Virus record (IMG/VR): IMGVR_UViG_3300045988_041693
Coordinates: 1-32,775 of that record
Source: a virus
Strand: one strand, 5' to 3'
DNA: 32,775 nucleotides
The translations under genes and the position numbers were made by a program. This document shows, piece by piece, positions 867 through 32,775 of the stretch (within the stretch, counting starts at the first letter, position 1; each line of letters begins with the position of its first letter). Below the pieces are notes generated by a model. The model did no database searches, was not told where the DNA came from, and was given only the letters and a program-made list of their open reading frames with translations.

Positions 867-908
867 CAAATATACGGCTTTTATCAATAGGTTGTACATT
901 CCGTTAAC
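867..908 (-). promoter_or_regulatory. Promoter-like element copy R1: GTTAAC-N28-TATATTTG on the minus strand (TAnnTTTG is the Bacteroidota -7 box)
   Basis: Plus strand has CAAATATA at 867-874 and GTTAAC at 903-908. The same bipartite spacing is seen at 18830-18871 and 23717-23758. A 21-nt stretch, CCTTTTGACATTACAAATATA, is identical to 23704-23724. Confidence 0.55.
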
Positions 909-930: not shown

Positions 931-1287
931 CTGTCTCACTTAAAACGTTGAAAACCAGGCATTTAAAAAATGAGATTTCAGACTGTGCCACCTCTCGAAA
1001 ATGCGCTGTCTCACTTAACGCGCTACAAACCAAGCCGTTACAACGGAAAAAGCCAACTGTGCCAGGTGAGGCTGACGTTTTCCTATAACTTTATTTGGGA
1101 TATATATAAAATACTACTATACTACGAATATTTAGTAGAGGGGGTAAATTTCAATAATCACCAAAATAAAGTGTTATACCATTTTCACTGTCTCACCTGG
1201 CACACCGCTATAAATAACTATAATACAGCAAGTTAAGTGAGACAAAGACTGTGCCACCTAAAAACGTTGCCTGGCACAGTGGCACAG
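931..1287. promoter_or_regulatory. Noncoding motif array A: CTGTGCCAC-family and CTGTCTCAC-family 9-mers around an AT-rich core
   Basis: CTGTGCCAC/G at 983, 1057 and 1249. Inverted copies at 1197, 1271 and 1279. CTGTCTCAC at 931, 1006 and 1188, with an inverted copy at 1237-1244. AT-rich core at about 1081-1180. Confidence 0.8.
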
Positions 1288-11030: not shown

Positions 11031-12641
11031 TTAATTGTTAACGGCTATTAATGTAACGTTAGCCGTGCCCGTTGATGCATCCCAGTTGCTGATAGTTCTA
11101 AGGTAGAACCAAGCGCCCAACTCGTCTATGTAATACAGCCCGTCCGACTTCATATTTTTTATGTCAAAATATGTTAACCGCATCTTTGCAGTCACTTGCC
11201 ACCCCAGGGAAAACCTTTCATAATGCCCTGCTATCGTAGCGCGGTAACCGCTTGCGCGGTTGAAATAGTTATCGAGAACCCACCACGTACCGGTGTTTTG
11301 CCTTATCATGGTGGCACAGGGGCGAGTCACACCCGGGTTTACCGGGAAATTGCTTTCTCCAGCGGTCTCCTGCGGGGATATTGCACCCCCGTAGCCGCCA
11401 ACGGTTTGCGTTAATTCGCCTACCTTTACAGCGTATGTTCGCGCGGCTCCCTCTGCTTCGGACACCTTAACACTGGAGGGGTCTATTTTCCCCGTCCAGT
11501 TAATTCTATACGTAGACGAGGTAGACGGGTTCACGAACGGTTTGAGTGTCAACGAAAACGGATCGGACTGAAACTCATAAGTCCAGCAAAACGCTTTGCA
11601 GAACGCCTGCACGATATCGAACGGGGTGTTCAGCCCCATCGTTGACACTAAGTCCCGGGCATATGCTGGAGATCCAACCGCCTTGATACGGAACGAAATA
11701 TAATACGCTTCGGTAGTAGGTACGGAAGTAATAGGCGCACCCAAGTAAACCATAGAACTCGAAGATGTTGTAAACCCGAAGTTCAAGTCTCGTGCAGGCC
11801 TCGGAGTTATTATACACGACATGGTGCCGGGGCTAACCGGGTAGTAGGGATAATTACCATCAGGTCTTACGGTTCCGCGCGCGAAAGGCAAAGCGAATGT
11901 ACCCCCGTTACTTCGTAGGTAGACGGTTGCCGGGGCGGACGGTGGTAGGATAATGAAGGAATCTGGAGTGAATTCAAGGTCGAACGTAGAACCCACCATG
12001 TATGTGAAGCATGTTGCTACGTCGTTATTCTCCGCTATCATGTAATTGGCAGCGTACACCGAACCCCTAAGCCCGTCATGTGCACCCTTAAATACCAACT
12101 GACTTTCCGCGTCCTGGTAATCGCCTGCTGTTTTCGTTTCCCGGTCTGCCACGTACGCCAGTTTTATGACGGTTGTGCCGTCCGACGCATATAGATTAGG
12201 CATACTTACCGGGGCGGGGTACGCGTAGTTAAGACTATCCACGTACGTCGAAAACTGGTACTCCGGCGTTTCAAAGGTAGGTATATTAACTACCGGGGCG
12301 CGGAGGGTCGAAAGCTTCGATACGGTTTCAATGAGTTCAATCGTATAGCTATCCAGTTCAGCGGACACACGGGCACGGAACAACCCGCCACCGACCGGGA
12401 CGTCAAGCCCCGAAAAACTAATCTCGGCTACATACGGGGAAGTCCGCGTATAGTAACCGGGAAAACGTTCGGACTTTAGCACCCGGTCATTAACTTGTGA
12501 CCGGGGCACGGTAATAGACCCCGAATAACTAACCGTTCGTTCGGAGAATTTAATTGGGTCGGGGTTGTTGATGGTGAGTTTTACCGCACCGGGCGTTACA
12601 CCGTCCAACAACACACCGTTTATTCTTATTTGTACTTCCAT
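11031..12641 (-). CDS. Putative tail, baseplate or receptor-binding structural protein (536 aa)
   Basis: Large beta-rich protein in the late operon. The N-terminus MEVQIRINGVLLDG is reminiscent of distal-tail-type proteins. No firm motif. Confidence 0.45.
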   Translation of the reverse strand: MEVQIRINGVLLDGVTPGAVKLTINNPDPIKFSERTVSYSGSITVPRSQVNDRVLKSERFPGYYTRTSPYVAEISFSGLDVPVGGGLFRARVSAELDSYTIELIETVSKLSTLRAPVVNIPTFETPEYQFSTYVDSLNYAYPAPVSMPNLYASDGTTVIKLAYVADRETKTAGDYQDAESQLVFKGAHDGLRGSVYAANYMIAENNDVATCFTYMVGSTFDLEFTPDSFIILPPSAPATVYLRSNGGTFALPFARGTVRPDGNYPYYPVSPGTMSCIITPRPARDLNFGFTTSSSSMVYLGAPITSVPTTEAYYISFRIKAVGSPAYARDLVSTMGLNTPFDIVQAFCKAFCWTYEFQSDPFSLTLKPFVNPSTSSTYRINWTGKIDPSSVKVSEAEGAARTYAVKVGELTQTVGGYGGAISPQETAGESNFPVNPGVTRPCATMIRQNTGTWWVLDNYFNRASGYRATIAGHYERFSLGWQVTAKMRLTYFDIKNMKSDGLYYIDELGAWFYLRTISNWDASTGTANVTLIAVNN

Positions 12642-14094: not shown

Positions 14095-14439
14095 TTACAA
14101 GTATTTAAACCATGCGTATGGCTTACGGTTTTTAAGGTATTCGGTATCGTGGTCGTTGATGTACGCCTCTTTCTCGAAGCCCATTCTATCATAGGGCTTG
14201 TCGTTCGGGTCACACGGCTTCTTCTCGAAACTCCATGCAAAGTAACGTATTACCCATTCGATACCGTACCAAAGGTAGAAAGGCACGTAAAGCATTTCGC
14301 GCATCTGTTTGGTGTGGATGCTTTCGTGTCTTATGGTCTTTTCACCTATGTAGGCGTTGCCGCGAACGAACAACACGCCAAATAGGTTAATGGCTTTGAA
14401 GCCCTTAAAGGGGATAAACTTGTTTCTGATAATCTTCAT
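14095..14439 (-). CDS. Small HExxH-motif protein (putative Zn-metallopeptidase-like)
   Basis: IRHESIHTKQMRE contains HExxH, preceded by FGVLFVRGN. This resembles the DUF4157/SprT-like pattern (hydrophobic strand, short gap, HExxHxxQ). Confidence 0.55.
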   Translation of the reverse strand: MKIIRNKFIPFKGFKAINLFGVLFVRGNAYIGEKTIRHESIHTKQMREMLYVPFYLWYGIEWVIRYFAWSFEKKPCDPNDKPYDRMGFEKEAYINDHDTEYLKNRKPYAWFKYL

Positions 14440-14518
14440 GGTTTCATGTGCCGTTCATTAGTTAACGACGCACAAAAGTACGTAGTAAATCACTACGAAA
14501 CAAGCCGCGCCAAGTCTG

Positions 14519-15624: not shown

Positions 15625-16770
15625 CTATTTGGGGCGGTATTTACGTATTAGGTAATCCACGCCATAACGCAAAGCGTCGAGTGAGTGGTTCCAAGCGTCT
15701 ATGGGTTCGTTGGTGTACGTATCGGTTGCCTCGTCCTTTATCCACTTGTAATTATCCAGCTCGTCCAGCATCTTAACGCTTCTTTTCGTTACGTGCAGTT
15801 TGAACTGCGACACCTGGGCGATACCTGCCGATATTGAGCCGCGCCCCTTGACACACGGTATCGCTTTGATACGTCTTTGCTGTAGCTCCACAATACTCTT
15901 TTGCTCCGCACTGTCGCACACGGTAACGACGCGGTTAAGCCCCTGGCTCGTCAAGTAGTCCGCGATGGCGCTGTTAAGTAGACCCGTCTCATAGCAAAGA
16001 AGGTCTACGTACAAGTCCCATCCCTCAAAGCGTATATCAACAATGGCGGTGGGGTCGTTAACGAAACCGAAGTCAAGCCCGAGGCACCGCCCGGTGAACG
16101 TTTCCGGTAGCTCGTCTATTACCTCATAGCTGGGGTAAACGTTACCCTCTACACCGCCCGTCTCGCCCTCTCCGTAGACGCGCCACCAGTTGGCGTCGCC
16201 CTTGTTCTTCTCGATTGCGCCCACCTGCTCCTTGGTTAGGTACGGGTTATCCTTGTACGTTGAATGGATGGTTACGTACCTTTCGCCTACGAACTCGGTC
16301 TCACCCCAGAACTTTCTAACGGGGTTGTAGTCAATGATGACTTTTTTACGTGTACGGATATCAAGCTGCCTAAAGATTTCACGCGGTATGCCCTGCGCCT
16401 CATTGACATACAGAATATCACGTGCAGGACCATGTACCTTCGAGGCATTATCGACGCCAAAGAACTCTATCACGCACCCGTTGGGGTACGTGTAGCACCC
16501 CTCGGTCTTGTTGAACGCGTTCTCGTCCCAGACGCCCTCGGTTACCAGCATCTGCTTGAAGTCCCGTTGCATGCCTCGCTTCACCATAGGCAGCGTAGCG
16601 GCAACGCACGAAACGATGAGGGGCTTTACGGAGTTGGCGCAAAGGAGGTGCAACAGCTGCAACACCGCCCAGGTCTTGCCGGAACGCGTGCCGCCCTTTG
16701 ACGCGACACCACGTATCCGGGGGTCGACGAAAGCCGCCAACAGCTTTTCAAATGTATATGTTACATTCAT
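15625..16770 (-). CDS. terL: Terminase large subunit (PBSX/Terminase_3-like)
   Basis: Walker A KGGTRSGKT near the N-terminus, a DYNP block and a C-terminal nuclease-type region. The start overlaps the terS stop (TGATG). Confidence 0.88.
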   Translation of the reverse strand: MNVTYTFEKLLAAFVDPRIRGVASKGGTRSGKTWAVLQLLHLLCANSVKPLIVSCVAATLPMVKRGMQRDFKQMLVTEGVWDENAFNKTEGCYTYPNGCVIEFFGVDNASKVHGPARDILYVNEAQGIPREIFRQLDIRTRKKVIIDYNPVRKFWGETEFVGERYVTIHSTYKDNPYLTKEQVGAIEKNKGDANWWRVYGEGETGGVEGNVYPSYEVIDELPETFTGRCLGLDFGFVNDPTAIVDIRFEGWDLYVDLLCYETGLLNSAIADYLTSQGLNRVVTVCDSAEQKSIVELQQRRIKAIPCVKGRGSISAGIAQVSQFKLHVTKRSVKMLDELDNYKWIKDEATDTYTNEPIDAWNHSLDALRYGVDYLIRKYRPK

Positions 16771-17393
16771 CAGATACCCCCTAACTTTTGTAGGTTCTTG
16801 ACGGCGTCCTCGGAAAGCACATTGACCTGCATAGCCTTTGTGCCCGCCTCCTTACCGTTGCTCGTCACATCTTTAAGGTCTCGCAACCCTCGTAGCTTCG
16901 CCATGTAGTTGGCATCCACCATCCCGGCGAGGGCTGCTTCGTCCATCTCGGTGGTGATAAGCTCCTTTATCAGAGTGTAACCGAGTAGAAGGTTCTCTGC
17001 GTCGGGGTTCGTCTCGGAAGCCTTTTCCAGCTTCGCTATGTTCTTATTGAAGTCTTTTATAGACCAGCCTATGAAAAGGCAGAAGCCGCCAACAGAGGGC
17101 GCGCGTTTCTTCTCCACGGGTACTTTCTGCCCTGCTGCCGCACCGCCTTTCAATATCTCGTATTGGATATAGGGGTTCTTCTCGCAGAAGTTCATGTACT
17201 CCGCTACGTAATTAATACACTCGTCGATGCTGTTAAGCGTAGCGCCTTTAACGCCTCGTGTCTGCATGACCTCATAAAGTTGTGTGCATGCCTTTAGCTC
17301 GTCCTTTGGTTTCGGGGGTGTCCCGGTTGCCTGCCCTTTCTTGATTTCCTTTTTCGTATCGGGGACGGCTTCTTTCTTTGTTCTTCCTGCCAT
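16770..17393 (-). CDS. terS: Terminase small subunit (Terminase_2-like)
   Basis: KKRAPSVGGFCLFIGWSIKDF matches the conserved kkrP.t..Gl..fLGis block. Lies directly upstream of terL and is translationally coupled to it. Confidence 0.72.
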   Translation of the reverse strand: MAGRTKKEAVPDTKKEIKKGQATGTPPKPKDELKACTQLYEVMQTRGVKGATLNSIDECINYVAEYMNFCEKNPYIQYEILKGGAAAGQKVPVEKKRAPSVGGFCLFIGWSIKDFNKNIAKLEKASETNPDAENLLLGYTLIKELITTEMDEAALAGMVDANYMAKLRGLRDLKDVTSNGKEAGTKAMQVNVLSEDAVKNLQKLGGI

Positions 17394-17450: not shown

Positions 17451-17555
17451 GTCTATTACTCCCTTAAGGGTGCGGGGACAAAAGTACATAACTTCTCACC
17501 ACAAACCAACCTGCAATCAGTCGTGAAAATCAAAAACATTTTACAAAGTAGGGGA

Positions 17556-17952
17556 TGGCACGGATAACGAACTGTCCCACAACGAGTTACAAGCGTTTTT
17601 GCCTACTGTGCCAGGCACGTTTCTGGTGGCACACCCCAGGTGGCACAGATAACTCGCTACGTATCAGAACGTTAGAGCGACTGTGCCACTGTGCCAGGCA
17701 AAAAGCACTTTTCTTACACTTGTTTTATAAAAAGTATTTATTACTGCTATCTCTACATTGCAATTACCATATATTTTTCCAAATAAAGTGTTATACCTAT
17801 TTTATACTATTTGGTGGCACAGCGTAGATAACTATATATAGGCCAGTGAGTTATCTGTGCCACTTGCTGTGCCACCCTACATTTTTCCCGGCACAGTAAC
17901 TGTTAATAGCATTGTGTACCAGTCAGTTAGGTGTGACAAGGACTGTGACAAG
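17556..17952. promoter_or_regulatory. Noncoding motif array B: about 10 copies of CTGTGCCAC/GTGGCACAG around an AT-rich core
   Basis: Forward copies at 17606, 17681, 17689, 17855 and 17867, with variant CTGTCCCAC at 17572. Inverted copies at 17626, 17640 and 17814, with a variant at 17888. AT-rich core at about 17700-17812. Confidence 0.8.
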
Positions 17953-18078
17953 CCTATATTTTTTACTCGCCGTAATTGATTATCAGCACGTTAGCACGAG
18001 GCGTCTTTTGATAAGGAATTTTCAATTAACAATCTAAACACTTTTTAAGAATTGAGATTTCATAAAATATAATTACAA

Positions 18079-18116
18079 AGGGCGATTTCTGACTATTTGT
18101 AAGCCGAAACCGCCCT
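18079..18116 (-). terminator. Probable rho-independent terminator ending the early operon
   Basis: In the minus-strand RNA, AGGGCGGUUUC-(16 nt)-GAAAUCGCCCU forms an 11-bp stem including one G-U pair, followed by UUUGUAAUUAUAUUUUAU. It lies 47 nt after the stop of the 137-aa gene. Confidence 0.6.
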
Positions 18117-18162
18117 TTTGCTATCATTTTTTAAAGGCATATGCTATTCGTAAGGGGTACTA

Positions 18163-18576
18163 TCATTTAGCAACTTTATCGCCCTCCCACCTGTCAAATA
18201 GCCAACCGTCAGCGCTCCAATACCAAATCATTATAGTCCCATCGGGAAAAAGGGTTGCACGGCTTATCCTTCCTTTCTTGTCTATGGTGTATCGCCTGGG
18301 TACGTCTTGTTCGTTCCTCCTCTCCTCATCGCGCCTTGCCACATCCCGGAAAAGGTATTGGCGCTTATTAACGTCCTGTTTATAGGTGAAGTCCTGCTCA
18401 CTGATGTAGGTTGCAAGATTATTTATCCATTTGCGACATTCACGGACCGATACGCTACCGCGCCCCCATCTATCTTTTTTAACGCCCCTCTCGAATCCGT
18501 ACCGCCTTATGAACTCCCAAATGATGAACGTGTGTACGTTTAGGCACACCGCCAGGTCCATGAATTTAACTCTCAT
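18163..18576 (-). CDS. Hypothetical basic protein (137 aa), last gene of the early operon
   Basis: Intact ORF whose start overlaps the preceding small ORF (ATGA). Arg/Lys/Trp-rich. No motif recognised. Confidence 0.55.
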   Translation of the reverse strand: MRVKFMDLAVCLNVHTFIIWEFIRRYGFERGVKKDRWGRGSVSVRECRKWINNLATYISEQDFTYKQDVNKRQYLFRDVARRDEERRNEQDVPRRYTIDKKGRISRATLFPDGTIMIWYWSADGWLFDRWEGDKVAK

Positions 18577-18804: not shown

Positions 18805-18829
18805 AATCTTTGTTTTTAAATTGTTGATA

Positions 18830-18871
18830 CAAATATAACGCTTTTCCAGTTACGTCGGTTATTTCGTTAAC
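18830..18871 (-). promoter_or_regulatory. Promoter-like element copy R3 (GTTAAC-N28-TATATTTG on the minus strand)
   Basis: Plus strand has CAAATATA at 18830-18837 and GTTAAC at 18866-18871. It lies 26 nt upstream of the 38-aa ORF start. Confidence 0.5.
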
Positions 18872-18872
18872 A

Positions 18873-19022
18873 TCATTTAAGTATTAAACTATCTTTCAGC
18901 GATAGCCCGTACTCTAATTGCTGTAACTTGAAATTACGTTGTATGCTGTCCGCCACGTTCTGTACTACGGTGCAGCCTACCAATACGAGCAGGGCTGCAA
19001 TAACTGTTATTAACTTTTTCAT
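18873..19022 (-). CDS. Small lipoprotein (49 aa), absent from the ORF track
   Basis: Hand translation MKKLITVIAALLVLVGCTVVQNVADSIQRNFKLQQLEYGLSLKDSLILK. It has a signal peptide with lipobox L-V-G-C. The ATG overlaps the SNF2 helicase stop (ATGA). Confidence 0.55.
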   Translation of the reverse strand: MKKLITVIAALLVLVGCTVVQNVADSIQRNFKLQQLEYGLSLKDSLILK

Positions 19023-20407: not shown

Positions 20408-20600
20408 TTCCCGCCTCCTTTATTACTTTTTCGCATAGGCTTGTAAGCCTCATGAGTTCTAACTTTAAGCGCATAACGTCCAATACAGGGGCGCTTCCCA
20501 TTGCGCTTAAATCTTTGCCGGTAATACCGTTTACTTTAGTTTGTAGGTGGCAGCCCTGGGAGGCTACCTCTACCTTTATATAATTACATTTAGCCACCAT
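20397..20600 (-). CDS. Hypothetical protein (67 aa)
   Basis: Intact ORF filling the gap and overlapping the helicase start by 11 nt. No motif recognised. Confidence 0.4.
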   Translation of the reverse strand: MVAKCNYIKVEVASQGCHLQTKVNGITGKDLSAMGSAPVLDVMRLKLELMRLTSLCEKVIKEAGNVR

Positions 20601-20601
20601 C

Positions 20602-20865
20602 TTACATTAGTTTAGTTCGATACCATACGCAGATGCTTTTGAAATCTCTTTCCTCGGGAATCTCCCCGAGTTGTTTACGGGAAAGGAAAATAACGTCTTT
20701 GGTTATATCGTCTTCAAGTTGTTTCATTACTTGTTTCTCATCTCCGTACTTCTTATCACGTACATACAGCGCTCCGCTCTTTAAGCCGATGTACAGCCCC
20801 AAGCGGTATTCAATCTCATTCTTAATTCCTTTTTTCATGATTTCTATTTTAAAATTGTCCTTCAT
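20602..20865 (-). CDS. Hypothetical protein (87 aa)
   Basis: Intact ORF in tight operon packing. No motif recognised. Confidence 0.45.
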   Translation of the reverse strand: MKDNFKIEIMKKGIKNEIEYRLGLYIGLKSGALYVRDKKYGDEKQVMKQLEDDITKDVIFLSRKQLGEIPEERDFKSICVWYRTKLM

Positions 20866-21567
20866 AAATAAATAATCTCTCGGTAGCTTTTTTATCTGGG
20901 TTAACGCAATTCTGTATTGACTTCTCCCAAATCTTTATAAAGTCGTCTGGGGCTTGGTATTCGGAAATATAAACTTTATGCCCGTCGTAAACACGCTCCC
21001 GACACCACTGCCAAAACTCATCGTGGTTCAGACCGGTTGCATATCCTGTGGTACCCATATACGGGGGGGGTCGCAGTATATTATGGACTCCTCGGGAATT
21101 CGTAGTCCCCTGTAGTCCCCGGTACGAAATTCTACGCCCTGCAAATTGGGTATCTGCTTTGCTAGGCCCCTCACAGCCTCGGATATGCGGTCTTCATACC
21201 TGCCGTTACTTCTCATGTATGCGCCTGAGTAGCCACCAAAGAATCTACCCCTGTAAGAAGCCACAAACCCCACCCAGCCCATAAAACCAAGGTCGTATTT
21301 GCCAGACCCCGAACGAAAGCATGTCCTAACATCATTATACAGTTCGCGGCTTATTTGCTCGGGGTATTTCTCCCCGGATACCAGCCCCCTAAACATGGAT
21401 ATCAAATATTCGTTGTAATCGTTTGCTATTCTATTGCCCAATACTTTGTCAGTCACATTGCACCCACCGCAAAACGGTTCTACGAAATACTGTCCTTCTT
21501 TTCTGTCTGCCAAGATTAAAGGCAAAATTTCTTTTGCTATTCTTGTTTTACCGCCCATATACTGCAT
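20849..21567 (-). pseudogene. Dam-like (D12 class) N6-adenine DNA methyltransferase, interrupted by a frameshift in a G8 (plus strand) / C8 (coding strand) run inside the DPPY motif
   Basis: The N-terminal ORF (21028-21567) carries YMGGK and EPFCGGCNV and ends ...IIYCDPP+RIWVPQ. The C-terminal ORF (20849-21058) starts MGTTGYATGLNHDEFWQW... The intact paralog at 28283-28996 reads VIYCDPPYDG...FDHDRFWHW and has G6 at the same place (28500-28505, against G8 at 21063-21070). Confidence 0.85.
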
Positions 21568-21591
21568 ACTTGTTTACTTTTAAATTTGATA

Positions 21592-21930
21592 TTACAAAGA
21601 TAATGGTTTTTGCGATACCTTGGTTACTTCCTTAACCTTGTTTAAGAAGAAAGTTATCGCGTTGTCCCTGCTCTCCAAATCGTCTATGACGAATACCGTA
21701 AAGCCGAGCGCCCTTAACTTCTCGTGGACGTAGGATTGTATCTTTGTCGGCTTCTTCCCGGTGGTCTTTATCTCGGCAAAGCCTACGTAACCGCCCCGGC
21801 AAATTACCATTCTATCGGGCAACCCCTTTACAAAGGTGGATAATAATTTTATTACCCACACTTTCTTTGTTCTGTTTAGGAGCTCGGAGAATGTACGCTC
21901 TAAATCTTTTTCACTTATTATATCCTTCAT
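21592..21930 (-). CDS. VRR-NUC domain nuclease
   Basis: GLPDRMVICRGGYVGFAEIKTTGKKPTKIQSYVHEKLRALGFTVFVI matches the VRR-NUC pattern G.PD...-G..-fvEvK..g.kls..Q...-..l...G..v.v. Confidence 0.8.
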   Translation of the reverse strand: MKDIISEKDLERTFSELLNRTKKVWVIKLLSTFVKGLPDRMVICRGGYVGFAEIKTTGKKPTKIQSYVHEKLRALGFTVFVIDDLESRDNAITFFLNKVKEVTKVSQKPLSL

Positions 21931-23264: not shown

Positions 23265-23675
23265 TTAATTGTTCAACGCTTCGACCATTTTTTTAAGCTC
23301 TCCGCGGCTTACGGCTATACTGAAAACCTCCGTTAACTTCTCTGTAATTACCCATGTGCCATTAAACTTTTGGAAATACGCCTCGTTGTTGCTCGGGTTG
23401 TTTAGGTTCACAGTCTCGCCCTTTCGGGGTTTGTATTCCGCAAGGCTTGCAAGCGTTACCGCTGCTTCCTCGGGTGTGCCTAAATGGACTTTCATAATAT
23501 ACCTTTCGGTCTCACGCGTTACCGCCTCAATGGTTATAGACCCATCTGTATCTACCAATTTGCAAACGCCCATGCGGAAGGACTTTAATACGTCCGGCTT
23601 ACCTTGTGACGTTATTTGGCTGAATGCTGATACACTTGTAAGAATTAACACTGCTAAAACTACTAATTTTTTCAT
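23265..23675 (-). CDS. Secreted or periplasmic protein with an N-terminal signal peptide (136 aa)
   Basis: MKKLVVLAVLILTSVSAFSQ is a signal peptide. The ATG at 23675 follows AATTTAAAAATTAAGATT. The track start at 23714 lies inside the promoter-like element, but it is in frame and cannot be excluded. Confidence 0.65.
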   Translation of the reverse strand: MKKLVVLAVLILTSVSAFSQITSQGKPDVLKSFRMGVCKLVDTDGSITIEAVTRETERYIMKVHLGTPEEAAVTLASLAEYKPRKGETVNLNNPSNNEAYFQKFNGTWVITEKLTEVFSIAVSRGELKKMVEALNN

Positions 23676-23716
23676 AATCTTAATTTTTAAATTGTTATTA
23701 TTTCCTTTTGACATTA

Positions 23717-23758
23717 CAAATATAGGGTTTATTCCTATACGTTGTATCTGTCATTAAC
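23717..23758 (-). promoter_or_regulatory. Promoter-like element copy R2 (GTTAAT-N28-TATATTTG on the minus strand), embedded in a 13-bp inverted repeat
   Basis: Plus strand has CAAATATA at 23717-23724 and ATTAAC at 23753-23758. The inverted repeat ATAGGGTTTATTC (23722-23734) / GAATAAACCCTAT (23768-23780) flanks it. Confidence 0.55.
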
Positions 23759-23804
23759 ACTGTTTAAGAATAAACCCTATTTTAGTCAATCTGTTAACAA
23801 GCCG

Positions 23805-26255
23805 TTAACTTTCGGACTTGGTATCGGCGTCTGCGTTAACAATTCTTTTGAATCCCCTTTGTTGCCCGTATGACTTCACGCGCTGTCTGCTACGCTCCCA
23901 TCCCGGTAACTTGTTCAGTATGTCGTTAATCTCGGAAGCGTCTTTAGCCCTAATTTTCCCTACCTCGAAGCCTAAAGCCTCAACCAGCACGCCCGTAGCG
24001 CTAACGAAGTCCATTTGCACGCAGTCTTCCTTCTTTATCTCGTCTTCATTGTAATTCTCGTAATACATGCGTCGTTCCAGGGGGAACATTCTATCCCAGT
24101 TTGCCGGCACGTACATATCACAATATCTTGCAACGGCTTCGGTACGCGGGTCTGTCTCGAAGTGTTCCTCCCTGCCTTGTTCTGCGATTACCTCCGCTTC
24201 CGCTGACAACAACGTAGACACACCGCGGAAATACATGTTAACGGCTTCCGCCCATAACTGGTCTACGTATGCCGGGAAATCAGCCTCGAAGATAAGATGG
24301 GTGTTTTCGTTGGCACGTACACGCACGGGTAGGAATCTACGCCCCCCGGTTGCGTCCTTCAAAAACTCGTCCTTATTGGTTGTACCAAAGAAAACGCACT
24401 GGCGCGGAAAGTTCTTGGTAACGCGCCCGTACGCCGGTCTAAAACTGTCCTCGGTCTTGGTGATGAAATTCTTAACCATCTCCACTTCTGAACGTCTCAT
24501 TGCTGATAACTCGGCAATTTCCAAGATCCAGCTACCTTGCAATTGCTCAAACGCTGACTTGCCATCCATCGTTGACAAGCTATCCGAGAACCATTGCTTG
24601 CCGAGCATCTTAAGGAATGTACTTTTCCCTGCTCCCTGGTCTGACTGCAAGACCAGCATACTATCGAATTTGCAACCTTTTTGGAAGATACGTTTAACCG
24701 CACCTACCATCATGATACGGAACGCCTCGCGGGTGTATATGTTATCCTCTGCACCGAGTATGTCAATCAACGCTGTATCTACGCGCTGCGTGCCGTCCCA
24801 TTCTAATTTTGTCAGATAGTTCTGCACCGGGTGGAAAGAGTTAATCTCGGCAACCAGTGATATAGCATCATCTACCTTAAACGAGCTACTAATGCCGTAA
24901 ACATCTTCTATATGTTTTCTAACGCCTGCAAAATCTACGTCTTGAAAGTCCGTGCTGCTATCCTTTGGTCTCCATATTGGGGTACGGGTAACAACCCTGC
25001 GTTCTTTAAATAGGTCACGGGCTATCAAGCCTTTTAAATTCGGGTCATACTTAAGTATTAAACCCAGGTTCTTTGCGCTCGGCAAGTAATTGCCTTTTTT
25101 ATCTACTTCGAGTTCCGCCATCACTTTTTCAAATGATACCTCGGGCACGTTATCGTGAACATCTTCGGGATCTATCGTCTCCTCGAAGTCGTTCATAACC
25201 TCGGCAGCCTTTACCAGCAAACGAGACGCGCGCATTTCCGCTACCTTTGCGTCCTTGTTTACAAGTTCGTTCATTGCGTCCGTTGACTTCTTACGGTCTT
25301 GTCCCTTATCCATCTTACCGAACTTGTGCACACGTACAAGGTCGTAGGCGTTAAACACGTGGTTGCCTTGGATGGGGTCGTTGTTGTGGAACGAATAGGC
25401 GAACTTATCATCAAAAGTAAGCATACCGCCCGATGTAGAACCCCCGGTATATGTCCATCTGTCGGGCTGGTCTGTCGGCTCGTAGACGTCCGGCAAATAT
25501 TCCGCGATGACTTCTGAAATGGTGTACGCCCGGCAAAAGTCACCTACCGTGCCTTCCTTTAAAGTGGGGTCTTGCTGCTCCTTAACAAAGGTACGTACTT
25601 CGCCTTTCTCATCCTTGTGGTATGCCCATTCCGTTGTGTCGTGCCAATCTTCGTACATGTTAAGGTATTCGTTGACGTCTAAAGGAAACTCGCACAACTG
25701 TGAATAGTCGGTGTAATCATAGTCTACGTCTCGGGACACGGATGGGAAGAACATACAGCGTTCGGGCTGGAAGGTCGTTCGGTCATACAAATCTATCCCG
25801 GTAATCTCGGCAACCTTCCTGGCAATAGCTTCGTACTGCTCACCGTCCACGGGTTCGGACAACGGAATGATAACACGATAGCGAAACACCCCTGCTTTCG
25901 GATTATGCTTATGTGTCCCGTGTATGATGCAGGCACAATTTATTGCCGCGAAAAAACGCTCCGGGAAGTCAGTCTCCCCGAAGTCGATGTCAAGCGTCAA
26001 TAGTGAGCGTTCGCCTACGTTGTTTTTGTTACGTCTGCTACCGAATAACTCGCCACCCATGAATGCGCCTACGTCTTTAATTGCACCTTGTTCAGCTTTG
26101 CTCGCTGCCGTGAACTCACGGTATGTTTCTTCCGTTACTTTCGCACTGGTGAACCTCTTTACAAGATCTTCCCATGTGTAGGTACGGTTTTTCCAACTTA
26201 CCGACTTCGCATTAGTAGCGGTCGCAACCTTAAAAGTCATTTTCTTTAAATCCAT
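23805..26255 (-). CDS. Bifunctional primase-polymerase (AEP-like N-terminus) fused to a VirE/D5-type P-loop NTPase
   Basis: The N-terminus has LLTLDIDFG (DxD), HGTHKH and RYRVIIPL, all AEP-like blocks. The central region has Walker A SDQGAGKST and a downstream VirE-like region. Confidence 0.85.
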   Translation of the reverse strand: MDLKKMTFKVATATNAKSVSWKNRTYTWEDLVKRFTSAKVTEETYREFTAASKAEQGAIKDVGAFMGGELFGSRRNKNNVGERSLLTLDIDFGETDFPERFFAAINCACIIHGTHKHNPKAGVFRYRVIIPLSEPVDGEQYEAIARKVAEITGIDLYDRTTFQPERCMFFPSVSRDVDYDYTDYSQLCEFPLDVNEYLNMYEDWHDTTEWAYHKDEKGEVRTFVKEQQDPTLKEGTVGDFCRAYTISEVIAEYLPDVYEPTDQPDRWTYTGGSTSGGMLTFDDKFAYSFHNNDPIQGNHVFNAYDLVRVHKFGKMDKGQDRKKSTDAMNELVNKDAKVAEMRASRLLVKAAEVMNDFEETIDPEDVHDNVPEVSFEKVMAELEVDKKGNYLPSAKNLGLILKYDPNLKGLIARDLFKERRVVTRTPIWRPKDSSTDFQDVDFAGVRKHIEDVYGISSSFKVDDAISLVAEINSFHPVQNYLTKLEWDGTQRVDTALIDILGAEDNIYTREAFRIMMVGAVKRIFQKGCKFDSMLVLQSDQGAGKSTFLKMLGKQWFSDSLSTMDGKSAFEQLQGSWILEIAELSAMRRSEVEMVKNFITKTEDSFRPAYGRVTKNFPRQCVFFGTTNKDEFLKDATGGRRFLPVRVRANENTHLIFEADFPAYVDQLWAEAVNMYFRGVSTLLSAEAEVIAEQGREEHFETDPRTEAVARYCDMYVPANWDRMFPLERRMYYENYNEDEIKKEDCVQMDFVSATGVLVEALGFEVGKIRAKDASEINDILNKLPGWERSRQRVKSYGQQRGFKRIVNADADTKSES

Positions 26256-28282: not shown

Positions 28283-28996
28283 TTAATTAATTAATGATAT
28301 GTATAGTTTTTCTGTTGCCCGTTTACTTGTCCTCCCGAGAGAGGAATTTATATCGAGGCTCCACGTTGGTATGAATAGGTCAGATCTTGTGGAATATTCG
28401 CTTACAAAAACCGTGTTACTTTCGGACATCATATCAGCCCAATGCCAAAATCTATCATGGTCAAACCCTCCGTTTTTGTATAGCTTTGTGCCGTCATACG
28501 GGGGGTCGCAATATATAACACTGTTTTCGGGTATTTCCATTTCATTGTATGGCAGTGAAGATAGAGTTAATGAGGGCATGTCTCGCAGGGACTTCACAGT
28601 TTTATTGAAATTTCTTATAGCCTCTTTTTGGTAATCCCTTTTTCCCTTCGCAGTAGGACATCCATTTCCCACGAACCCTTCGAAATATCGACCATTATAC
28701 GATGCACAAAAACCGATATACGCAGTTAATGCTTTGTCGTATTCTCCGTTTTTCGCTGCCCTATACATTTCAATATCTACGTACTCGGGGAATGTACGCC
28801 CCGAAATATCTTCTTTAAATAAACATATTAGGTCTTCGTTTAGATCGTTCGCAAAAACTCTCCCAGCAAAATGGGGGGTTATGTTACACCCTCCGCAGAA
28901 CGGCTCAAACAACATTCCGTTTGATTTCTTTACAGCATCGTTTATTATTGGGGCCGTGTGTTTGGCAAACATTGCCTTACTTCCCATGTAATTCAT
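28283..28996 (-). CDS. Dam-like (D12 class) N6-adenine DNA methyltransferase, intact
   Basis: YMGSK, EPFCGGCNI (FxGxG AdoMet motif) and IYCDPPY (motif IV). Confidence 0.88.
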   Translation of the reverse strand: MNYMGSKAMFAKHTAPIINDAVKKSNGMLFEPFCGGCNITPHFAGRVFANDLNEDLICLFKEDISGRTFPEYVDIEMYRAAKNGEYDKALTAYIGFCASYNGRYFEGFVGNGCPTAKGKRDYQKEAIRNFNKTVKSLRDMPSLTLSSLPYNEMEIPENSVIYCDPPYDGTKLYKNGGFDHDRFWHWADMMSESNTVFVSEYSTRSDLFIPTWSLDINSSLGRTSKRATEKLYISLIN

Positions 28997-31313: not shown

Positions 31314-31342
31314 CGTTACGTTGGTTCTTTCGTTAACTTCTT

Positions 31343-32521
31343 TTATGAATTTAATTCCTCAAACATATCCAAAGTAGGTTGTATTGGTTCTCTTTTATCG
31401 CTTTCCGGTGCGAGCGTTGGCGCGCCCTGGGGCTTAATTATTACACCGTCCAGCAGAACCGTTAACGGCTTCTTTCCTACGGTCCGTTCCAGGTCTCCGA
31501 TACCTTTTATCTTCGTATTGATAAGGGATTCCCGGTCAAAACCTGCCTCCGTTAGCCGTTTTAAGGCTTCTGCTTCGTCTTTAATGACCCGTGCCGACCT
31601 GCCTTCCACCAGCTTCCATCCGTTAATGTGCTTACCGCTTAAGGCTTCGTACATCGCAAACTGTTTAACTGATGCCAACCAATCGGTAAACATGTCTGCC
31701 TTACTCAGTATACCCCCTATTTCTTCCAAAGATAGGGCTTTGGTTTCTCCGTGGGTCTCGAACTCATTAACAAGTGCATCACGTTGCGCCCGGCATTGGG
31801 CTTTGAACTTGCAGAATCTGCAGTGTGTCCCCACTTTCGCTTCTCCCTGCCCGGCAAATGCTTTCTCAGCCGTGGGTCTTAGTACGTGTATCGCCCAGTG
31901 GGTTAAATCTCGTGACGTCATCTCGAATACCGGGAAATGCCCCAGACGTACTTGTGCAATGTGCATACGTACCATTTCGATTTTGGACTGCTTTTCTGGG
32001 GGCAAAGAGCGAAGGACACCGAGCGCATATAGCATTAGCTGCGTGTTGTTCTCGGCTTCCACCCTCACGCCCTTTCCATACTTAAGGTCTATGATGTTTA
32101 GAACCTTTTCGCCTACTATGTCGCAGTCGCAGCTACCGAAACAATCGGGTACGTACATTGTTAGGTCAAACTTTCGTTCTATACTCATTTCCGCGCCCTC
32201 TACGACCTCGTAAACGTCGCACACGTAACATACGTAGTCGGTTACGTACTTATCCATCTCGGGGCTGTAATACTTGTTTTCCGCAATCTCTTTTGGTACG
32301 GGCAATTCATCAAGTAATGGGGTGTATTCCCCAGCCAAATACTTTCTTATTGCGTGCTCGGCTAACTCGTGAGCTACTGTTCCTTCTTCCGATGCCGCGC
32401 TTCCCGTGCCCGGTATGTTTTCTTCCAACCGTGCGGACGGTGTACACTGCATCCAGCGGTGTGAGCTACTGGGAGATAGGAGCGCATGCGCGCGCTCGCT
32501 ATGGTTTATCTGTTCTTTCAT
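31343..32521 (-). CDS. PD-(D/E)XK / Cas4-like exonuclease (DUF2800 family)
   Basis: N-terminal HALLSPSSSHRWMQCTPSARLEE is the DUF2800 signature. There is an internal D...DLKYGKG nuclease core and a C-terminal Cys cluster, CRFCKFKAQC. Confidence 0.8.
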   Translation of the reverse strand: MKEQINHSERAHALLSPSSSHRWMQCTPSARLEENIPGTGSAASEEGTVAHELAEHAIRKYLAGEYTPLLDELPVPKEIAENKYYSPEMDKYVTDYVCYVCDVYEVVEGAEMSIERKFDLTMYVPDCFGSCDCDIVGEKVLNIIDLKYGKGVRVEAENNTQLMLYALGVLRSLPPEKQSKIEMVRMHIAQVRLGHFPVFEMTSRDLTHWAIHVLRPTAEKAFAGQGEAKVGTHCRFCKFKAQCRAQRDALVNEFETHGETKALSLEEIGGILSKADMFTDWLASVKQFAMYEALSGKHINGWKLVEGRSARVIKDEAEALKRLTEAGFDRESLINTKIKGIGDLERTVGKKPLTVLLDGVIIKPQGAPTLAPESDKREPIQPTLDMFEELNS

Positions 32522-32775
32522 CTTGTCAAGGGGTAATTTTCAATGCGTTGTTTAAGCAATGCGAATTTAGAAGGGTTAACCTTTGAAAGTGAGGTACCAC
32601 CGAACTCCAAAAGTATAGATGCCATCTCGTCACGGGTAACGTGTCCAGACTTCACACTGGATATTACGAGGTGTTGCATCTCCTTTAAAGTAGGTGCTTC
32701 ACCCTTTGTCTCGTTGTATACCTTTGCAGGTTCTTCTGCCTTTGCAGGTTCTTCTGCCTTTGCAGGTTCTTCTGC
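32518..32775 (-). CDS. Hypothetical protein, C-terminal part of the junction-spanning gene (see 1-325)
   Basis: Hand translation from the window end: (AEEPAK)x3 VYNETKGEAPTLKEMQHLVISSVKSGHVTRDEMASILLEFGGTSLSKVNPSKFALLKQRIENYPLTR, then a stop. The TGA overlaps the ATG of the DUF2800 gene (ATGA). Confidence 0.6.
   Translation of the reverse strand, partial: AEEPAKAEEPAKAEEPAKVYNETKGEAPTLKEMQHLVISSVKSGHVTRDEMASILLEFGGTSLSKVNPSKFALLKQRIENYPLTR
32721..32775. repeat. 18-bp tandem repeat, three units, identical to the units at the window start
   Basis: CCTTTGCAGGTTCTTCTG occurs three times at 32721-32774. The last 43 nt of the window equal nt 1-43. Confidence 0.95.

Follow-up and report, generated by a model that had tools for sequence, protein, structure and literature searches.

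The stretch of DNA analysed here, referred to as the window, is the 32,775-nt IMG/VR virus record IMGVR_UViG_3300045988_041693, a circularly permuted assembly of a complete Bacteroides siphophage genome. Our analysis of sequence, structural models and related systems indicates that its repeat array at 17556-17952 (array B) is probably one of two homologous iteron replication origins read by a phage initiator-helicase, namely the VapE-type primase-helicase of 816 amino acids (aa) encoded at 23805-26255 on the minus strand. The second unit, array A, is located at 925-1290, and the pair most likely represents an origin of a known type, the arrangement in two copies being unusual. Each unit, about 350 bp long, has a weak AT-rich core flanked by iterons of 7-9 bp in opposite orientations. 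The VapE protein, a self-loading superfamily 3 (SF3) helicase of the 'PriRep' type, would recognise the iterons by a C-terminal winged helix, chiefly through its beta-hairpin wing, and, once assembled at either side of the core, would melt this stretch and prime DNA synthesis. This mechanism is proposed because it has been shown experimentally for the homologous Rep proteins of staphylococcal pathogenicity islands (SaPIs); for the present phage, both the binding of VapE to array DNA and the firing of the origins are what we infer.

The 9-mer CTGTGCCAC, or GTGGCACAG when inverted, has nine exact copies in the window; dinucleotide-preserving shuffles predict 0.13, and none of 100 such shuffles reached nine. 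When up to one mismatch is allowed, the whole window holds 16 matches to CTGTGCCAC against 4.07 expected. The cluster reported upstream of terS in the initial annotation of this DNA, made from the letters alone, is thus real and far above chance. Eight of the nine exact copies lie in the two homologous non-coding units (five in array B, three in array A), and a single copy, at 11311, falls in coding sequence, as had been described. In array B the left repeat set (17606-17697) consists of copies at 17606-17614 (plus strand, CTGTGCCAG), 17626-17634 (minus, GTGTGCCAC), 17640-17648 (minus, exact), 17681-17689 (plus, exact) and 17689-17697 (plus, CTGTGCCAG), all of them invariant across the window's clade, while a weak left copy, CTGTCCCAC, is situated at 17572-17580. 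The right set (17814-17896) has four copies, of which those at 17814-17822 (minus), 17855-17863 (plus) and 17867-17875 (plus) are exact and that at 17888-17896 (minus) carries two mismatches; its last pair (17867/17888) forms a palindrome with a 13-nt spacer. All copy coordinates of the initial annotation proved right, including the variants at 17572 (one mismatch) and 17888, but the copies at 17606, 17626 and 17689, which it had counted as full ones, are one-mismatch variants. Between the two sets, the AT-rich core at 17700-17812, already delimited in that annotation and here a putative DNA-unwinding element, ranks second in instability among the 100-bp stretches of the genome (z 3.57). Array B is conserved in six clade relatives. 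Within the clade, variable columns make up 5.9% of the repeats and 8.5% of the AT core against 21.5% of the spacers (Fisher 6e-6 and 6e-5), and the repeats and the core are, as judged from the aligned sequences, under purifying selection. At the outer edge of the array (17931-17950) the window has GTGTGACAAG plus CTGTGACAAG, where the clade relatives have GTGAGACA. The assignment of array B as a predicted origin unit is hence supported by motif statistics, by homology to array A, by conservation in the clade and by purifying selection.

Array A was missed in the initial annotation, in which array B was the sole cluster; its word copies extend over 983-1287 and it occupies the other large non-coding gap of the window, there being no third. 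Copies of CTGTGCCAC are found at 983-991 (plus, exact), 1057-1065 (plus, one mismatch), 1197-1205 (minus, two mismatches), 1249-1257 (plus, exact), 1271-1279 (minus, one mismatch) and 1279-1287 (minus, exact). A second word, CTGTCTCAC, is present in array A only, in three exact copies at 931-939, 1006-1014 and 1188-1196 (plus) and a near copy with one mismatch at 1237-1245 (minus), and the copies of both words are invariant in seven genomes. The AT-rich core of array A (about 1078-1187, with the conserved box CCAAAATAAAGTGTTATACC at 1161-1180) is the third least stable 100-bp window of the genome, and the two cores, ranking second and third in this respect, fit unwinding elements. The arrays are co-oriented, show 73% column identity when aligned, have the box AAATAAAGTGTTATACC in common and share a 22-nt perfect inverted match (1267-1288 versus 17680-17701). 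In array B at least two copies lie on each side of the core, on opposite strands on the two sides, and the same holds for array A. We thus consider array A, on the basis of motif copies, homology to array B and clade conservation, a second, co-oriented predicted origin unit. Strongly conserved boxes other than repeats were also observed inside the cores, at 17746-17766 (TTGCTATCTCTACATTGCAAT) and 17779-17797 (CCAAATAAAGTGTTATACC) in array B and at 1081-1097 and 1161-1180 in array A. The box CCAAATAAAGTGTTATACC occurs in both arrays and in all lineages, TTGCTATCTCTACATTGCAAT in array B and in lineages L019, L051 and L061, and TTCCTATAACTTTATTT in array A and in phage BS162P3; they could be host-factor or priming sites.

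The window is about 77% identical to siphophages of Bacteroides uniformis, e.g., C2_18_80S2P, BU2-1, BU241P1 and EMB1. An exact search did not find the 9-mer in C2_18_80S2P and BU2-1, which suggested that the arrays are not conserved; this was rejected, as de novo k-mers showed that the word had changed and the layout had been kept. In every relative, the corresponding two sites are occupied by gaps of about 500-650 bp, and the short words of the relatives are near-exclusive to both gaps (CTGCACAG, 8/8 genome copies; ATCTGTGCA, 7/7; ATCTGGTCA, 6/6). A scan of IMG/VR with the primase-helicase yielded 63 further loci, in which the arrays were located via the core box described below. Both arrays recur at matching positions in 10 GenBank relatives and in those IMG/VR loci that span them, and more than 70 related genomes have kept the pair. 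The alignment to relatives that the initial annotation had called for accordingly shows conserved array positions and layout together with a lineage-specific word. The common layout consists of repeats flanking an AT-rich stretch of about 100 bp, followed by tandem copies and then by a palindromic pair with a 13-nt spacer; the AT stretch carries a conserved box, GGGTAAAACATTATTTTGG, on the coding strand, and almost every related genome has this core box. The two-array design reaches down to 42-60% identity of VapE, as in ARB25 and BV57P2. In ARB25 (L074), a model phage of B. thetaiotaomicron, the word ATCTATCC forms arrays at 20506-20821 and 36967-37241, and in the Phocaeicola phage BV57P2 (L076) the word CTGTTCC does so at 20579-20663 and at 37504-37537 plus 7-288. 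A reduced version, a three-copy inverted repeat around an AT-rich core, is seen in BS162P3, and a crude detector revealed no obvious array in Parabacteroides phage PM116P1.

Word type is pure within each genome and the same in both of its arrays. CTGTGCC characterises 10 genomes (the window's clade), CTGTGCA 29, CTGTGTA seven, CTGGTCA four and CTGTGTC one to three, while other lineages have GTGTTCCA, TGTGACAA, GTGTTAC or TGTTCCGACA at both positions, TGTGACAA being the main word of lineages L051 and L061. Phages with CTGGTCA are free of CTGTGCA copies, and the reverse is also true. Since the word varies among phages of one host species and is identical in both arrays, a specific reader encoded by the phage is to be expected. 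A resemblance of the word to a DnaA box or to the sigma-54 element (TGGCAC) was considered and rejected, because there is no TTGC partner at the right spacing and the word varies within a host species.

Among all gene families tested, only the VapE-type primase-helicase tracks the word type. It is the sole family whose excess of similarity within over between types is significant for both CTGGTCA (p 0.002) and CTGTGTA (p 0.008), and the only one with CTGGTCA-diagnostic columns. The CTGTGTA association is confined to VapE aa 781-812 (d 14.5; p 0.0002, the lowest value that 5000 permutations can give), with none in aa 1-780 (p 0.11), and is therefore not simply inherited with the gene. Single VapE columns reach a Fisher value of 4e-6, and the associated columns cluster in a C-terminal patch within the last 30 or so residues, which is hypervariable in an otherwise conserved protein and corresponds to the wing discussed below. 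The patch reads GWQRAANGK-TV in phages with CTGTGCA, GWKRSADAK-SV (also ..AAEAR-P.. and ..SAEAK-A..) in those with CTGTGTA, GWQRAAGRR-AV with CTGGTCA, ..AANAK-P.. with CTGTGTC and GWERSR--Q-RV with CTGTGCC, the word of the window's clade. For CTGTGTA, an acidic residue at one position is common to three different wing backgrounds, and in at least six further lineages a distinct wing is paired with a distinct word. This covariation of wing and word, seen across more than 60 genomes, is statistical rather than biochemical, and its statistics treat genomes as independent, for which recombination helps only partly. No word-type signal was detected in the genes flanking VapE or in those beside the arrays, and none of the small early protein families covaries with the word. 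Being the sole covarying family, the VapE-type primase-helicase at 23805-26255, a gene that the initial annotation had not considered, is the likely binder.

Smaller comparisons were less informative in this respect. The window is about equally distant from all its relatives, and no binder was discriminated by that comparison; similarly, no outlier protein was found when BU183P2, a CTGGTCA phage, was compared with seven relatives, the signal emerging only with the 63 extra loci. Three candidates were set aside. The VapE substitution Q478R is perfectly linked to CTGGTCA, but this residue, part of an HPVxxYL motif close to the helicase domain, is confounded by phylogeny and was not used as evidence. 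A 63-aa open reading frame (ORF) that appeared as a type-linked gene is an alternative frame of polA, and a 48-aa 'ORF' with type-diagnostic columns (L002|33275) sits inside array B and represents translated repeats.

The VapE protein belongs to the Pfam VapE-like family (3.8e-80) and to primase/helicase families of PHROG. Its residues 395-741 match aa 35-387 of SaPI1 Rep (7PDS_A; E 2.1e-76, phmmer against PDB), which is the only solved relative. An AlphaFold2 model of aa 690-816 was built on 117 homologues collected with the full-length query, as the 127-aa C-terminal fragment itself returned one protein. The model (pLDDT 87, pTM 0.78) ends in a helix (fragment residues 64-71), a second helix (81-93) and a beta hairpin (97-104/108-115), and the hypervariable patch coincides with this hairpin, i.e., with the wing of a winged helix. 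In Foldseek searches the model superposed on the C-terminal domain of all six Rep1 chains of 7PDS (TM 0.70-0.72, probability 1.00), the hits after Rep1 being weak winged-helix DNA binders. AlphaFold2 and Foldseek together place the predicted C-terminal winged-helix domain at aa ~742-816 (23808-24032, minus strand) and the wing hairpin, the putative specificity patch, at aa 786-804 (23844-23900, minus strand). No repeat words are present in the 90 bp after the VapE gene. Directly downstream of its stop codon there is a 30-nt inverted repeat (23716-23786, 80% complementary, 11 nt apart), which overlaps a promoter unit and the least stable stretch of the genome and is devoid of repeat words.

With regard to genome layout, every long ORF of the window is carried by the minus strand, and GC skew is monotonic across it because all genes are on one strand. 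Transcription proceeds from the early (replication) operon through a hairpin at 18066-18125 to array B, a -7 box, terS (16770-17393, minus strand; phrog_606, 1.4e-11) and terL (15625-16770), in agreement with the earlier placement of the array immediately upstream of terS. The late operon continues past the lysis genes and a DUF6549 gene to a hairpin at 1296-1335, array A, a promoter unit and the first early gene. The late module is thereby bracketed by arrays A and B, each with an operon terminator on one side and the following promoter on the other. The early-operon terminator, initially given as 18079-18116, is a strong minus-strand hairpin (dG -24.5 kcal/mol, z -6.2) with a U-rich tract after it, and an equivalent is present in relatives. 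Its late-operon counterpart at 1296-1335, also on the minus strand (dG -19.8 kcal/mol, z -3.9), has a UUCG loop followed by a U5 run, is invariant in the window's clade and lies directly upstream of array A in the direction of transcription. Between array B and terS, a putative late promoter -7 box, TACTTTTG, can be read at 17479-17486 (minus strand) and is kept in all lineages as TACCTTTG or TATCTTTG; we assign it to the Bacteroides type, the consensus of which we take to be TAnnTTTG. The early promoter -7 box TATATTTG is located at 867-874 (minus strand), inside a 77-nt promoter unit (848-924) downstream of array A.

Two explanations other than replication origins concern this position at operon boundaries. 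The arrays might act as operators or enhancers on the early (A) and late (B) promoters, with a phage protein, possibly the primase-helicase itself, timing the switch. Both arrays are placed between a terminator and the -7 box that follows, 60-120 bp upstream of the promoter, and the palindromic pairs with 13-nt spacers, 21 bp from centre to centre, suit dimeric regulators; the former observation would allow a transcriptional role, alone or in addition, and in that respect weighs against origins. However, four further promoters of this family function with no array nearby, a large AT-rich core would not be needed, and the sole covarying protein is a replication helicase with initiator homologues. 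The dedicated regulator suggested in the initial annotation is not borne out either, since no small early protein covaries with the word, and searches of Pfam and PHROG revealed no helix-turn-helix regulator among the array-flanking genes. The 137-aa basic protein at 18163-18576, formerly proposed as a binder, has no family match in Pfam or PHROG, its homologues lack any word-type association, and the 131/137-aa protein beside array B has no substitution private to BU183P2. The other candidate of that annotation, the protein spanning the circular junction, turned out to be an acidic protein with PAKAEE repeats. We therefore regard an operator function as improbable, although a secondary regulatory effect of initiator binding on the adjacent promoters is conceivable, given the proximity of the arrays to them. 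Array B may alternatively be a packaging site, pac or cosB-like, bound by TerS beside its own gene, as had also been considered initially. It does adjoin terS, and both SPP1 and lambda have repeated sites for TerS. In addition, the relatives are headful (pac) packagers by PhageTerm (PMC9584325). Yet TerS is 96-99% identical between phages with different words and has no type-diagnostic residues, that of BU183P2 showing one private substitution relative to CTGTGCA phages; the equivalent array lies 16.6 kb away from terS, after the lysis genes; and the word type follows the helicase wing instead, all of which makes a packaging site highly improbable.

A function of the repeats through nucleic-acid structure, i.e., hairpins, cruciforms or structured RNA, with the arrays kept alike by gene conversion, would agree with the many inverted pairs able to form stems of 7-8 bp and with words changing together in direct and inverted copies. 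Such a scenario has very little to recommend it, given that the stems are short with loops of 13-130 nt, that tandem direct copies have no pairing partner requirement, that the whole window gave no Rfam match at the gathering threshold and that the covariation with a protein wing would be left unaccounted for. The least probable reading takes the arrays for centromere-like partition sites, or for places where proteins are loaded for purposes other than replication initiation. Repeat sets flanking a core do resemble plasmid centromeres of the parC type, but no ParA/ParM/ParB-like gene was found among the proteins scanned or in the annotations of relatives. Moreover, the relatives are lytic with clear plaques (PMC9584325). 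Iterons around an AT-rich core acting as a replication origin, also among the options of the initial annotation, are in turn supported by the covariation of word and wing, by Rep homology, by selection and by melting behaviour. Several observations nevertheless weigh against origins read by VapE. The CTGGTCA association is partly phylogenetic, the four VapE proteins concerned being mutually closest relatives, and the mapping of wing to word is not one-to-one, as several wings go with CTGTGCA. Repeat orientation is '> > core <' in the window's lineage versus '< core > >' in the CTGTGCA clade, and the conserved non-repeat core boxes, together with the second word CTGTCTCAC, are unexplained by an origin. 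Other intergenic sites show AT-rich instability as well, and the least stable 100-bp window of the genome, at 23639-23738, belongs to neither array. Finally, the arrays lie about 5.9 and 7.5 kb from the VapE gene and are two in number, unlike in SaPIs.

Beyond two origins as such, it is conceivable, if rather unlikely, that the units are coupled, non-redundant or promoter switches and that the wing is the main base-reader with a recognition code. Coupling might resemble P4 ori/crr, with looping by primase-helicase hexamers. As switches, the arrays would let initiator occupancy gate the early and late promoters and thereby tie late transcription to replication. The at least 10 natural wing-to-word pairs, for their part, might form a readable recognition code for this initiator family.

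A number of other features of the genome were also recorded. The 77-nt promoter unit downstream of array A belongs to a family of five conserved minus-strand units of about 77 nt (848-924, 18811-18887, 21576-21652, 23698-23774 and 31315-31354), each with a Bacteroides-type -7 box (e.g., TATATTTG) and a conserved TTAAC element. They are probably early and middle promoters, and the first is the only one that adjoins a repeat array. The late-type -7 box (minus strand, TACTTTTG) is part of a 37-nt repeat (14472-14508 and 17478-17514), of which one copy lies upstream of terS and the other upstream of a 114-aa gene (14095-14439); this gene is missing in several relatives and may be an insertion that brings its own promoter. 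In the leader that separates the early promoter from the first early gene there is a 61-nt direct repeat (650-710 and 750-810, 79% identical, 100 nt apart), also kept in relatives (…cccggtgtttgaatcccattcacttttcaaactttcc…). A sigma-70 promoter scan of the window was uninformative for Bacteroides. Genes resembling DNA adenine methyltransferases are found at 20849-21567 and 28283-28996, one of them possibly split into ORFs of 69 and 179 aa; they occur in some relatives only (BU2-1, BU730P1 and BX788P2), pointing to accessory mosaic content. The two ends of the window overlap, positions 7-55 being identical to 32721-32769, and the overlap falls within a coding tandem repeat of 18 nt (1-73 and 32685-32775). 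This repeat, CCTTTGCAGGTTCTTCTG on the plus strand, codes for the PAKAEE repeats of the acidic junction protein; its copy number is ambiguous, and simple joining of the window ends leads to a frame shift. With respect to lifestyle, the related phage EMB2 is a headful (pac) packager according to PhageTerm and a lytic phage with clear plaques (PMC9584325), and the phage of the window is a virulent headful-packaging Bacteroides siphophage. The start of the EMB2 record falls inside polA and carries no information on termini.

In the literature searched, we found no characterisation of the replication origins of gut Bacteroides phages. Our results assign a candidate origin and a candidate initiator to a sizeable group of siphophages of Bacteroides, Phocaeicola and related hosts, including ARB25. 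What is unusual is that two homologous units bracket the late genes and are kept down to about 42% initiator identity, with many natural switches of specificity. Given that a wing of about 20 residues tracks the word, the data also predict which residues may determine origin specificity in the SaPI Rep/VapE family. Possible uses comprise phage-derived replicons for Bacteroides, the prediction of incompatibility or cross-activation of co-infecting phages, and the annotation of 'VapE' proteins as initiators.

The closest known system is that of the SaPIs, whose Rep proteins are self-loading SF3 helicases that act as initiators via a winged helix in the C-terminal domain. The short iterons that this domain reads lie to either side of an AT-rich region, two or more on each and in opposite directions, with a specificity particular to each element; SaPI5 has a primase-Rep fusion (PriRep5), 7PDS is a complex of SaPI1 Rep1 with DNA, and no complex of the winged helix with double-stranded DNA has been resolved for the family (PMC9371898). 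The VapE protein resembles them in its homologous SF3 core, in the same C-terminal fold (TM ~0.71) and in the fusion of primase and helicase as in PriRep5, and the arrays resemble the SaPI ori in their short opposed iterons flanking an AT-rich region and in the cognate word for each initiator variant, which in our case is a statistical relationship. In contrast, the SaPI ori is present in a single copy directly downstream of rep and has iterons of 5-6 nt, whereas here two units of about 350 bp are placed at operon boundaries, the words have 7-9 nt, additional conserved core boxes are present and the carrier is not a satellite but a virulent siphophage of Bacteroidales. A similar inference from helicase and iterons has been made for the lytic Enterococcus phage Abitsa (Efquatrovirus), in which a PriRep5-like self-loading helicase and a predicted ori with seven 10-bp iterons around an AT-rich region were described (PMC13517437). 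Abitsa differs in its host phylum and in having a single origin near the genome terminus, and no covariation analysis was reported for it. Two homologous, distant origins, oriL and oriR, with initiator repeats beside an AT-rich region are known in SPP1, likewise a pac-type siphophage. However, G38P, the initiator of SPP1, does not belong to the SF3 helicases and recruits a helicase distinct from itself, oriL lies inside the initiator gene, and there is no sequence relation to the present arrays. Finally, the alpha protein of P4 unites in one polypeptide a primase and an SF3 helicase with an origin-binding winged-helix domain at the C-terminus (PMC2777425). This order of domains matches that of VapE, although the P4 primase is DnaG-like and the P4 C-terminal domain was not among the Foldseek hits. 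P4 alpha binds the same octamer iterons at two loci kilobases apart, ori and crr, both of which are needed. The same word at two separated loci in every genome is thus a trait in common with P4, but in P4 the two loci, 4.5 kb apart, differ in layout, while arrays A and B are homologous copies.

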